DNA of 64,000 nt from IMG/VR virus record IMGVR_UViG_3300008107_000012. One strand, 5' to 3'. This document shows, one piece after another, positions 21,891 through 56,102 of the stretch (positions are counted from its first letter, which is position 1; each line of letters starts with the position of its first letter). Below the pieces are notes generated by a model, which was not told the origin of the DNA, did no database searches, and saw nothing but the letters and a program-made list of their open reading frames with translations. The stretch is from a virus. Both the position numbers and the translations under genes were made by a program.

Positions 21891-21908
21891 TTTATCCTTA
21901 TTATGAAT

Positions 21909-21981
21909 GGGTCTGTTGCATAGTGGCTAATGCACCTGGCTTTTAACCAGTATATCGTGGGTTCGAGTCCCACCAGACCCA
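21909..21981 (+). tRNA. tRNA-Lys(UUU)
   Basis: Cloverleaf; loop CT-TTT-AA. Confidence 0.93.
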
Positions 21982-21985
21982 TCGT

Positions 21986-53572: not shown

Positions 53573-53633
53573 TTTAGAAGGAGGGTTAAAACCCTCCTTT
53601 TTTAATAAATAAATTTACTGAATAGGTAAAGAT

Positions 53634-54335
53634 ATGAAAATAGATCTCCATAATTTCTTTTTACACTACGATCCTAAAAATCCAAAGCACGTTGCAGCAG
53701 TAGAGCAGTTTGAAAAGGATTTGGAATCTAAAAATCCAGACTTGCTTGATGATGAAACGAGTTGGGTAAAAATTTATAGGTTAAAAGTAGAACCCGTAGT
53801 TCCAGGAGTTCTTAATGTTCCTTGGTTCCCACAAACAGATAATTACAGAGATGCACAAAGAACCTGTAATTCATCTTCTTGTGCGATGTGTCTAGAGTAT
53901 TTCAAACCAGGCACACTTCAGGGAGCAACAGGCGATGATGCCTATATTCAAAAGGTATTCGCAATTGGTGATACGACTGATCACACCGTCCAAACAAAAG
54001 TTTTGGAAGGTTATGGTATTAAGTCACGATTTGTTTACAATCTTTCTTTTGCTGATCTTGATCGTGAGCTTGCCGCTGGGAGACCTGTCGTTATCGGGAT
54101 TCTTCATCGCGGTTCTTTATCTGCACCTACTGGCGGGCACTTACTTGTAGTGATCGGTAAGAAAGGTGATGATTATGTTGTAAATGATCCTTATGGTTCT
54201 CTCAACGATGGATATACAGGACCAGTTACAAATGGTAAAGGTGCTGTATATAAGAAATCAGATTTAATGCAACGTTGGTTGGATAAAGGAAAAGATAGAA
54301 CTGGATGGGGTCGTATTTTTGATGCAAAAAAGTAA
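53634..54335 (+). CDS. C39-like cysteine peptidase
   Basis: PWFPQ..TCNSSSCAM, GGH and VNDPYG motifs; ends in GCA AAA AAG TAA. Confidence 0.8.
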   Translation: MKIDLHNFFLHYDPKNPKHVAAVEQFEKDLESKNPDLLDDETSWVKIYRLKVEPVVPGVLNVPWFPQTDNYRDAQRTCNSSSCAMCLEYFKPGTLQGATGDDAYIQKVFAIGDTTDHTVQTKVLEGYGIKSRFVYNLSFADLDRELAAGRPVVIGILHRGSLSAPTGGHLLVVIGKKGDDYVVNDPYGSLNDGYTGPVTNGKGAVYKKSDLMQRWLDKGKDRTGWGRIFDAKK

Positions 54336-54805
54336 TTAGTTCTATTCCAGTTAAAGGGGTAGAACTGATAAAAGCATTTGAAGGATGTAAATTAAGAGCA
54401 TATCCAGATCCTTTGACTGGAGGTGCTCCAATCACAATAGGTTGGGGTTCTACTCGCAGAAAAGATGGAACTGGATTTATGATGGGTAATACCATTACAC
54501 AACAGGAAGCAGATGATCTGTTAATGTTTGATATTGAAACAAAATTTATTCCTGCACTACAAAAAATCCTTTATTGGAATGAGATGAATGAAAATCAACA
54601 AGGAGCACTTCTTTCTTTTGCTTATAATCTTGGTGCTCATTTCTACGGGGGTTCCAATTTTAATACCATAACTAGAGTATTAAAGAATAAGGAATGGGAT
54701 AAAGTTCCTGATGCTTTATATCTTTACCGAAATCCTGGAAGTAATGTAGAGGCAGGATTAGCAAGAAGAAGAAAAGCAGAGGGTGATCTTTGGAAAAGAA
54801 CTTAA
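54326..54805 (+). CDS. GH24 lysozyme domain, probably reached by -1 frameshift from the C39 gene
   Basis: LIKAFEG..AYPDP..TIGWG...FAYNLG...GLARRR. No in-frame ATG/GTG/TTG precedes the catalytic Glu. Confidence 0.8.
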   Translation, partial: KKVISSIPVKGVELIKAFEGCKLRAYPDPLTGGAPITIGWGSTRRKDGTGFMMGNTITQQEADDLLMFDIETKFIPALQKILYWNEMNENQQGALLSFAYNLGAHFYGGSNFNTITRVLKNKEWDKVPDALYLYRNPGSNVEAGLARRRKAEGDLWKRT

Positions 54806-54842: not shown

Positions 54843-56102
54843 ATGGATGAATTTCAACTTGAAGAACTGCAAAAGTCAAATCAGCAAATACAGGATACTA
54901 TCCCTTATGATCCTAATGCTGCATCTAGGTATCCTAATGGATATACACCTGTAGGAATTGGTGAAGATAATACTCCAGTTGAGCAGGTTAATTCTGTAAA
55001 TGTTCCTGAAGTAGAAGTAACATCTCCAATATTAAACGACATTATTCCTCAGGACGTTTATGGGTCTTCTGGGGATAATATTTCTTTTGTGAATAGAAAT
55101 ATTCCAGAAGTTGAAAACATACGAATAGACTCAACAACTCCTGTAAGAAACGCAAATGTCGTTATTAGCAGTTTACCTGGGAATAATATTGTTCCTGATA
55201 GTTCTAGCAATAGTGATGGACCACCTATCGAAGAAGATGTGGTAGATCCACCTGTTGATCCAGAACCTCCTGTAGACCCCCCAGTTGATCCTGAAGATCC
55301 AGAGGATCCCCTACCACCTCCACCACCAGAAGATCCTGAAGATCCAGAGGATCCCCTACCACCTCCACCACCAGAAGATCCTGAAGATCCTGAAGATCCT
55401 GAAGATCCTGATCCAGAAGATCCTGAAGATCCTGAAGATCCTGAAGATCCAGAGGAACCTGAAGATCCAGAGGAACCTGAAGAACCTGAAGATCCAGAGG
55501 AACCTGAAGATCCAGAGGAACCTGAAGATCCAGAGGAACCTGAAGATCCAGAGGAACCTGAAGATCCAGAGGAACCTGGTGGGGGTAATCCTGGTAATGA
55601 TAAAGATGTAGGCAATTCCCCTTGGGATGGTGAGACAGGAGCATCAGACAATCCAGGCAAAGGTAATCACCAAGATGGACAAGATCCCGAACCAAACCAA
55701 CCTCCAGGCGATTCAAAAAATGACGGAGGACAAAATAATGATCCAAAAGATCCTCCTGGTAATGGAGGAGATAATGGAAATGGTGGAGGAAAACCTGATG
55801 AACAGCAAAATAATGGATGGGGGAATGGAGATGATGATGCTCCAGGTAATTCCCTCAATCACAATAACGCTGAAAATGATCAGTCTCCAAGTGAACATTA
55901 TGATGATTTTGTTGGAAGATTCTTAGAAGAAAATCCAGTAGATCTAAATGATATTAATACTCACGAAATTCCTAACGAGCATCCTCTTGATAATTTTGAT
56001 ACTCATATTCCTGATGTTGTATTAGATAATTTGCCTGAAGTTCACTTTGATCACTTTGACCATCCTATGGATCATTTTGATCACGGACCTCATAGTATGT
56101 AA
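54843..56102 (+). CDS. Acidic, Pro-rich, low-complexity late protein
   Basis: PED/PEE tandem repeats, NNGWGNGDDDAPGNS motif, His/Asp-rich tail; TAAATA upstream. Confidence 0.75.
   Translation: MDEFQLEELQKSNQQIQDTIPYDPNAASRYPNGYTPVGIGEDNTPVEQVNSVNVPEVEVTSPILNDIIPQDVYGSSGDNISFVNRNIPEVENIRIDSTTPVRNANVVISSLPGNNIVPDSSSNSDGPPIEEDVVDPPVDPEPPVDPPVDPEDPEDPLPPPPPEDPEDPEDPLPPPPPEDPEDPEDPEDPDPEDPEDPEDPEDPEEPEDPEEPEEPEDPEEPEDPEEPEDPEEPEDPEEPEDPEEPGGGNPGNDKDVGNSPWDGETGASDNPGKGNHQDGQDPEPNQPPGDSKNDGGQNNDPKDPPGNGGDNGNGGGKPDEQQNNGWGNGDDDAPGNSLNHNNAENDQSPSEHYDDFVGRFLEENPVDLNDINTHEIPNEHPLDNFDTHIPDVVLDNLPEVHFDHFDHPMDHFDHGPHSM
55289..55578 (+). repeat. Coding tandem repeats (9-nt CCTGAAGAT and 18-nt CCTGAAGATCCAGAGGAA units)
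   Basis: Direct repeats visible in the sequence; they encode PED/PEE. Confidence 0.9.

Follow-up and report, generated by a model that had tools for sequence, protein, structure and literature searches.

A probable programmed −1 frameshift joining a peptidase to a start-less lysozyme in T4-like cyanophages

This article concerns the junction between a cysteine peptidase and a lysozyme encoded in overlapping reading frames on IMG/VR virus record IMGVR_UViG_3300008107_000012, a viral DNA of 64,000 nucleotides referred to below as the window. The window is T4-like cyanophage DNA – among isolates, Synechococcus phage S-SRM01 comes nearest, sharing 73% nucleotide identity, and the 59 matching phage records are all from Synechococcus phages – and the public sequencing runs containing the stretch are mostly lake and other freshwater metagenomes, with several labelled as fungus metagenome. 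The junction, where the lysozyme frame lies one base back from the peptidase frame and has no start codon of its own ahead of its catalytic residue, consists of the following features, to which a phage tRNA gene encoded elsewhere in the window is added:

53634–54335, plus strand: the zero-frame open reading frame (ORF), a papain-like cysteine peptidase of 233 residues ending ...FDAKK-stop (ORF list, PF13529 and PHROG 3617).
54320–54322, plus strand: a TGA closing the −1 frame one codon 5′ of the heptamer (from the sequence; the same layout in 64 of 69 distinct relatives).
54326–54332, plus strand: the slippery heptamer A_AAA_AAG, in zero-frame codons GCA AAA AAG (from the sequence and its conservation in relatives).
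54333–54335, plus strand: the zero-frame stop codon TAA, immediately 3′ of the heptamer (from the sequence).
54335–54369, plus strand: a candidate stimulatory stem-loop of 14 base pairs with a 7-nucleotide loop (RNAfold, relatives and a swap test).
54332–54805, plus strand: the −1 frame, comprising a Ser/Pro linker (VISSIP), a GH24 lysozyme domain and a stop codon at 54803–54805 (translation and PF00959).
54380–54382, plus strand: the catalytic Glu codon, in the motif LIKAFEG (alignment of lysozyme domains and ORF list).
21908–21983, plus strand: a phage tRNA-Lys(UUU), which would read both Lys codons of the heptamer (ARAGORN).

Read directly, the 3′ end of the peptidase ORF is GAT GCA AAA AAG TAA, with the heptamer in the X_XXY_YYZ phase relative to the peptidase frame. 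Behind the TGA, the −1 frame is open from 54323 to 54805 and reads CKKVISSIPVKGVELIKAFEGCKLRAYPDP...; the two frames overlap by 13 nucleotides (10 before the stop codon), an overlap that the heptamer fills. The sole canonical start in the −1 frame is TTG 54413, which lies 11 codons past the catalytic Glu codon and would omit that residue, and 5′ of it there is no ATG, GTG or TTG. The original prediction, made from the letters of this DNA, had proposed a frameshift between the two genes, and its description of the site stands: the coordinates of the heptamer and of the directly following stop, the start-less −1 frame behind the TGA, the calculated fusion length of 390 residues (233 + 157) and the existence of the phage tRNA all hold, and the hairpin arms at 54336–54348 and 54356–54368 pair as claimed, with RNAfold adding one A–U pair (54335/54369). 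The junction peptide that such a fusion would contain is DAKKVISSIPVK in this phage and DAKKVTSSTSR... in Synechococcus phage S-PM2. The run of six A residues (A6) is identical in a near-identical uncultured contig (L008) and in an independent public assembly (run X2), where one gapless contig spans 54056–54726; a metatranscriptome contig matching the locus covers only 54390–54567, 3′ of the A-run. Of two raw-read runs, one contained no read from the locus and the other a single, partly fitting read away from the A-run.

The upstream product begins with an N-terminal helical module of about 50 residues, followed by a domain that matches Peptidase_C39_2 (PF13529) over the full length of the profile (residues 60–187; 50.5 bits against a cut-off of 24; 4.4e-13). 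Its translation holds the motifs NSSSCAM and GGH, then NDP, as candidates for the catalytic Cys and His, and a sequence search against the PDB gave no match; the enzyme is presumably a cell-wall endopeptidase or amidase. The −1 product matches Phage_lysozyme (PF00959, the GH24 family) over residues 17–153 at 85.4 bits (cut-off 22.3; 5.1e-24). Solved GH24 lysozymes match the −1 frame at 2e-17 to 1e-8, aligning from its residue 8–11 and themselves beginning 7–10 residues before that point, so that the GH24 domain begins directly behind the linker. Across the relatives, which share 60–75% amino-acid identity in the lysozyme domain, E20, D29 and T38 are invariant, and by this comparison the domain is under selection. 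PHROG 3617, a profile of 405 positions, matches the peptidase with positions 1–235 and the lysozyme with positions 245–404, and since it covers both halves the family is one of fused proteins. For one natural fusion (contig L082), an AlphaFold model gives the lysozyme a predicted local distance difference test score (pLDDT) above 90, the N-terminal module about 80 and the peptidase about 50, with the linker disordered.

Helical modules of this kind recur among the relatives. In those with separate genes (for example phage DSL-LC03, L004, 446–1117 and 1219–1887), both the peptidase and the lysozyme begin with a module of about 50 residues with the consensus DLHNFFxYYDxxN..H..AV..LE, which is also present at 53634–53790 of the window and corresponds to no Pfam family; in L031, L052 and L328 the lysozyme begins instead with a module of another type, MTIKFIDAV.NHKDL.HQNDAW. 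The lysozyme always carries some N-terminal module, either its own or the peptidase's, except in S-SRM01.

The ways in which relatives arrange these two enzymes were surveyed by protein homology alone, with no DNA motif imposed, which yielded 112 distinct junctions in which a peptidase is followed by a lysozyme:

no −1 overlap, lysozyme with its own start: 50 of 112 distinct junctions.
in-frame fusion: 17 of 112 distinct junctions.
−1-frame overlap: 45 of 112 distinct junctions.

The commonest architecture is that of separate genes (the DSL-LC03 type), with a peptidase ending ...WGRIFD and a lysozyme that has its own ATG and its own module of about 50 residues. In-frame peptidase–lysozyme fusions are found in ACG-2014f (gp211, 405 residues), L082 and a marine clade, and also in L304–L316; a reversed, lysozyme–peptidase fusion occurs in S-CREM1 (PHROG 10051) and L011, and genes coupled through an overlapping ATGA in S-SRM01, L031 and L052. 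The arrangement seen in the window is shared with S-PM2, S-CAM7 and many uncultured contigs. The fused protein is evidently viable, judging from the in-frame forms in 17 distinct relatives and from a protein family profile that spans both halves. An ATG precedes the catalytic Glu in 13 of the 45 overlapping junctions and is missing from the other 32.

With the same A6 run and the same frame relation, the start-less arrangement recurs in some 100 distinct sequences that come from a large number of samples and sequencing methods, and the −1 relation that the original prediction proposed to look for in homologues holds in all start-less relatives. Most likely, the lysozyme of S-PM2 and about a hundred uncultured relatives is, like that of the window, made only by such a frameshift. 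For S-PM2, GenBank annotates only a 72-residue ‘putative lysin’ that lacks the catalytic Glu; the junction itself was read in NC_006820, while AJ630128 and LN828717 carry the same junction annotation. None of the GenBank and RefSeq records examined annotates a joined coding sequence.

The heptamer is a constant feature of these junctions. Among the 32 start-less −1 overlaps of the homology-only sample, all 32 contain an in-phase slippery heptamer within their overlap of 13–37 nucleotides: A_AAA_AAG in 31 and T_TTT_TTT in one, S-CAM7. A_AAA_AAG is in phase in each of the 31 relatives that possess it, and the zero-frame stop codon follows it directly in 24 and after 3 nucleotides in the other seven. 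A slippery heptamer is found in none of the 11 junctions whose lysozyme has its own ATG, 64–84 codons before the Glu, and with it its own N-terminal module; the remaining two ATG-bearing overlaps, those of S-SRM01 and L320, have both ATG and heptamer. Peptidases whose lysozyme is a separate gene never carry the Lys–Lys tail (0 of 64) and end ...WGRIFD.

A scan of the collection for the pattern GYN AAR AAR TAR after W-G-R-x-F-D, which admits all synonymous forms, returned 91 loci with 42 distinct 30-mers, and every one of the 42 reads GYA AAA AAG. In the same sequences, the nearby codons for Gly, Arg, Ile and Asp take four, five, three and two synonymous forms, respectively. Elsewhere in these genes AAA makes up 0.68 of Lys codons and a third-base A occurs in 0.33 of Ala and Val codons, so that GYA AAA AAG would be expected in only some 7% of independent lineages. 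AAA AAG is preceded by GCA, GTA, ACA or GAA, and in one further lineage by CCA: five different residues (Ala, Val, Thr, Glu and Pro) precede Lys–Lys, and the third base is always A. The heptamer, whose conservation in homologues had been put forward as a check, is kept at synonymous sites; these comparisons indicate that it is conserved as nucleotides, beyond what the coding of Lys–Lys needs.

S-CAM7 offers a variant of the same design. Its peptidase ends GTT TTT TTT CCA CAG TAG, with a run of eight T residues; the −1 frame opens just 5′ of this run, the lysozyme again has no canonical start, and a G–C-rich hairpin of 8 base pairs starts 5 nucleotides past the T-run. The junction is identical in three isolates and one uncultured contig, and a second uncultured contig keeps the T-run while differing in a few bases of the stem-loop. 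Because S-CAM7 differs in both heptamer and stem at the same gene boundary, what is maintained would appear to be the recoding itself.

The segment between the heptamer and the catalytic Glu points in the same direction. Across 69 distinct heptamer-bearing junctions, this linker is 18–30 codons long, always in frame, stop-free and rich in Ser, Thr, Pro, Asn and Gln, and in 64 of them the −1 frame opens one codon before the heptamer. The −1-frame linker peptide of S-PM2 (..SSTS..YDIPVKGVEL) recurs in L082 within a continuous ORF, the DNA of the two junction types differing by one base directly after the heptamer. By these comparisons the linker is coding and translated.

In the window, the 66-nucleotide context of the hairpin folds at −18 kcal/mol (z = −4.5), with none of 200 dinucleotide shuffles as stable (RNAfold). 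The uninterrupted helix starts 2 nucleotides past the heptamer and its G–C-containing core 5–6 nucleotides past. In the 69 junctions, the 80 nucleotides after the heptamer fold at a mean of −19 kcal/mol, with a mean z of −2.7 against shuffles and 48 of the 69 below −2. When 60 of these junctions were aligned, 58 had an uninterrupted helix of 7–14 base pairs starting 2–8 nucleotides past the heptamer, in one of three registers offset from one another by a codon each; these comprise 17, 26 and 15 sequences, and their arms are AGTTCTAC/GTAGAACT, CAACACCAC/GTGGTGTTG and GCCAACTAAC/GTTAGTTGGC. Within each register, two to four pairs show base changes on both sides. The other two aligned junctions and several of a second sample (L099, L145, L355, L320 and L354) form unrelated stems lying wholly within the linker; there are at least six different stem sequences overall, including at least three unrelated stems beyond the three registers.

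The pairing was also probed by a swap test, in which the first 17 nucleotides past the heptamer were replaced by those of another junction, many of the donors coming from the same register: the swap costs 4.1 kcal/mol on average, and in 59 of 69 cases the native version folds more stably (Wilcoxon p = 3e-11). After the heptamer retained by S-SRM01, whose lysozyme has its own ATG, there is no hairpin. The hairpin, too, had been singled out as something to follow through homologues, and it is kept despite changes of sequence and register; as far as comparison and folding go, it is conserved as a structure, with covariation.

Two further sites may be recorded here. In a divergent lineage (L320/L322, ~1270–1340), CCA AAA AAG is followed 7 nucleotides downstream by a 10-base-pair hairpin, and the peptidase frame continues without a stop for about 70 codons past the heptamer, so that shifted and unshifted products would both carry extensions. 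In S-CRM01 (L291, NC_015569.1, ~1540–1600), a −1 frame change interrupts the lysozyme domain at GAAAAAG, within a conserved LKxKxW stretch, and the continuing frame (1584–2336) enters an L,D-transpeptidase-like domain (YkuD-like, HGG...GC) that is annotated as a separate hypothetical protein; the break reflects either a homopolymer error or a further site of recoding.

Taken together, the locus is very probably a single translational unit in which a programmed −1 ribosomal frameshift gives both a peptidase and a peptidase–lysozyme fusion. The two products proposed by the original prediction, of 233 and 390 residues and arising by a frameshift of the dnaX/IS3 type, are thus supported by the comparative evidence. 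In this scheme, most ribosomes would read GCA AAA AAG and stop at TAA, releasing the 233-residue product with its N-terminal module and C39-like peptidase. A fraction would be paused by the downstream hairpin with tRNA-Lys on AAA in the P site and on AAG in the A site, slip to A_AAA_AAA, one base back, and from there translate the Ser/Pro linker and then the GH24 lysozyme in the −1 frame, giving a two-enzyme lysin of 390 residues. That the slippage is ribosomal in nature, as well as its efficiency, the role of both products in lysis and the importance of their ratio, is what we infer; the muramidase dose, as the original prediction had it, may be set by frameshifting.

Several observations weigh against this scheme. 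There is no dnaX-like upstream Shine–Dalgarno stimulator at the usual 10–14 nucleotides, the only G-rich stretch upstream being TGGGG at 54306–54310, which ends about 15 nucleotides before the heptamer and is dictated by Trp–Gly codons; a search of Rfam found no matching frameshift element, the dnaX element included; and the helix starts only 2 nucleotides past the heptamer if the weak A–U and G–U end pairs are counted. To these must be added that in roughly one relative in four a GTG or TTG lying 7–12 codons ahead of the Glu could start a free lysozyme, that near-cognate codons are available in the window (ATT 54335 or 54344, CTG 54365 and ATA 54368), and that one extra A in the transcript would yield the identical fusion.

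The last three of these points belong to two other explanations. The lysozyme might be translated alone from a non-canonical or weak start in the linker, perhaps coupled to termination of the peptidase, with the heptamer a mere Lys–Lys tail, and the overlapping ATGA restart of S-SRM01 is indeed a workable design at this very junction. Yet 41 of the 69 relatives have no ATG, GTG or TTG at all before the Glu, the rest have only scattered starts, which in 16 relatives lie 7 or more codons ahead of the Glu, and no candidate – the alternative start for which the original prediction had proposed to check – is conserved in position or kind across the alignment. An independent start would moreover leave unexplained the invariant GYA AAA AAG with its third-base A under five amino acids, the three-register hairpin, which would bury the candidate starts, and the stop-free, frame-preserving linker of 18–30 codons that begins exactly at the heptamer; we consider it very unlikely. 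Slippage of RNA polymerase, which would add one A to some transcripts by stuttering on A6 (or on T8 in S-CAM7) and so lead to the fusion, has in its favour that homopolymer runs are known substrates of such slippage – as in Thermus dnaX, Shigella mxiE and some insertion sequence (IS) elements – and that the S-CAM7 run reaches eight. A6 is short, however, productive slippage usually occurring at runs of 8–9 or more; all 42 distinct sequences have G as the seventh base, although a longer A-run would serve better; the conserved hairpin lies 3′, at frameshift spacing, whereas known stimulators of transcriptional slippage lie 5′ of the run; and the run is kept in one codon phase, which only a ribosome senses. 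We therefore rate polymerase slippage as highly improbable.

It could finally be supposed that a homopolymer error splits a continuous ORF or that the lysozyme is a dying pseudogene. Relatives with a continuous ORF, which had been named as what would speak for such an error, do exist, and a single base after the heptamer separates L082 from the S-PM2-type junction; they nevertheless form a separate minority architecture, and nothing at the present junction suggests a homopolymer error. Since the arrangement is present in about 100 distinct sequences, S-PM2 and three S-CAM7 isolates among them, since an independent assembly of this phage is gapless across the run, and since the lysozyme frame is intact with invariant catalytic residues, error and decay can be excluded for practical purposes.

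Three of the in-frame fusions, ACG-2014f (L007, 1110–1145), L082 (1456–1475) and L334, retain A_AAA_AAG with a hairpin 5–6 nucleotides downstream, and their −1 frame is closed by its second codon (GTC TGA or GCC TGA). A frameshift in the dnaX direction, which would truncate the fusion and release the peptidase alone, was considered for them and demoted: most marine in-frame relatives encode the same Lys–Lys–Ser–Asp/Glu peptide without a slippery sequence (AAG AAG and others), so that the ACG-2014f heptamer could be a matter of chance. In a search for further in-frame AAAAAAG-TCTGA junctions, 90 of the 91 matches were due to chance.

The original prediction had also suggested that the phage tRNA-Lys(UUU) could influence the ratio of the products. 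Compared by BLAST with the gene from the window and then by ARAGORN, this tRNA is also found in S-PM2 and in two complete frameshift-type contigs; it was not found in two frameshift-type contigs that are 82–83% complete, and five genomes with a stand-alone lysozyme gene gave no match. With so few genomes, and with relatedness and tRNA array size as confounders, this correlation is weak and a lead only. As to gene order, the tRNA gene lies after tRNA-Arg(UCU) and before those for Tyr, Asp and Glu in the window, in S-PM2 and in the two complete contigs (L292, L293 and L294 examined). A joint reading can be imagined in which the phage tRNA accumulates and raises slippage, the fusion appears late and helps to time lysis, and the two products co-assemble through the N-terminal module and so set a stoichiometry; as a whole, we regard this as unlikely.

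The surroundings of the lysin genes also deserve mention. Between the peroxiredoxin and peptidase genes, at 53578–53603, lies a G–C-rich hairpin with a T-run (GGAGGG-TTAAAA-CCCTCC-TTTTTT), and 3′ of it an AT-rich TAATAAATAAAT box that is absent from the list of the consensus scan; the two look like a terminator followed by a late-type promoter, in which case the lysin pair would be a unit of its own. The gene after the lysin (54843–56102) encodes a protein of 419 residues whose middle is an extreme acidic repeat of Pro, Glu and Asp (PEDPEDPE..., PEEPEDPEEPE...) and whose C-terminal part is rich in Gly, Asn, Asp and His; at the equivalent position, DSL-LC03 has a gene annotated as autotransporter-like.

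Among known recoding systems, a close parallel is dnaX of Escherichia coli, whose tau and gamma products depend on A_AAA_AAG read by tRNA-Lys(UUU), a downstream stem-loop and a Shine–Dalgarno-like stimulator 10 nucleotides upstream. The heptamer is identical here, a stem-loop likewise follows within a few nucleotides and the two products would share their N-terminus; however, the dnaX shift truncates the protein (gamma), whereas here it would extend it into a second enzyme, the upstream Shine–Dalgarno-like element has no evident equivalent, and the product is a lysis enzyme rather than a replication clamp loader. Both the IS3 family and the phage tail-chaperone genes G/GT are known −1 recoding systems. 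In the IS3 family (IS911, IS150), OrfA/OrfAB resemble the present case: a heptamer of the A_AAA_AAG type lies close to where the upstream ORF ends, a structure lies 3′ of it, and the shift joins a start-less downstream catalytic domain to the upstream product. Yet they are a transposase and its regulator, not two hydrolases, and there is no sequence relation. G/GT is likewise a conserved phage recoding event that yields a short and an extended product at a fixed ratio, but its products are structural or chaperone proteins, its heptamer in lambda is G_GGA_AAG and its extension is not an enzyme.

Two products from one endolysin gene are known for enterococcal Lys170 and clostridial CTP1L, which use an internal in-frame start. 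They share with the present gene the making of a full-length and a partial product at a set ratio; there, though, the second product is a C-terminal binding domain made by internal initiation, while here termination would give the partial product, the N-terminal enzyme, and a frameshift would be needed for the full-length form. Comparable, too, are the in-frame relatives (ACG-2014f gp211, PHROG 3617, L082 and L304–L316) and the reversed fusion of S-CREM1, with the same two domains, N-terminal module and homologous linker; in the in-frame relatives the ORF is continuous, no recoding is needed and most lack the heptamer. In the full-text literature that we searched, no frameshift is described for a cyanophage lysin or for an endolysin of any kind. 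The mechanism proposed here is thus of the canonical dnaX/IS3 type, and a lysis enzyme as its target appears to be unpublished.

If this reading holds, it corrects the lysin gene model across a branch of the Kyanoviridae, S-PM2 and S-CAM7 included, and, as far as the searched literature goes, a lysis enzyme joins the few phage genes known to be controlled by programmed frameshifting. It also carries a caution for automated annotation and for the mining of viromes for endolysins, in which a start-less lysozyme would be truncated or dropped. The same two enzymes occur as separate genes, joined by a −1 frameshift, fused in frame, fused in reverse order or coupled through ATGA – a natural comparison series through which the question of why a two-enzyme lysin may be made at a fixed ratio would become testable in a tractable phage–host pair.

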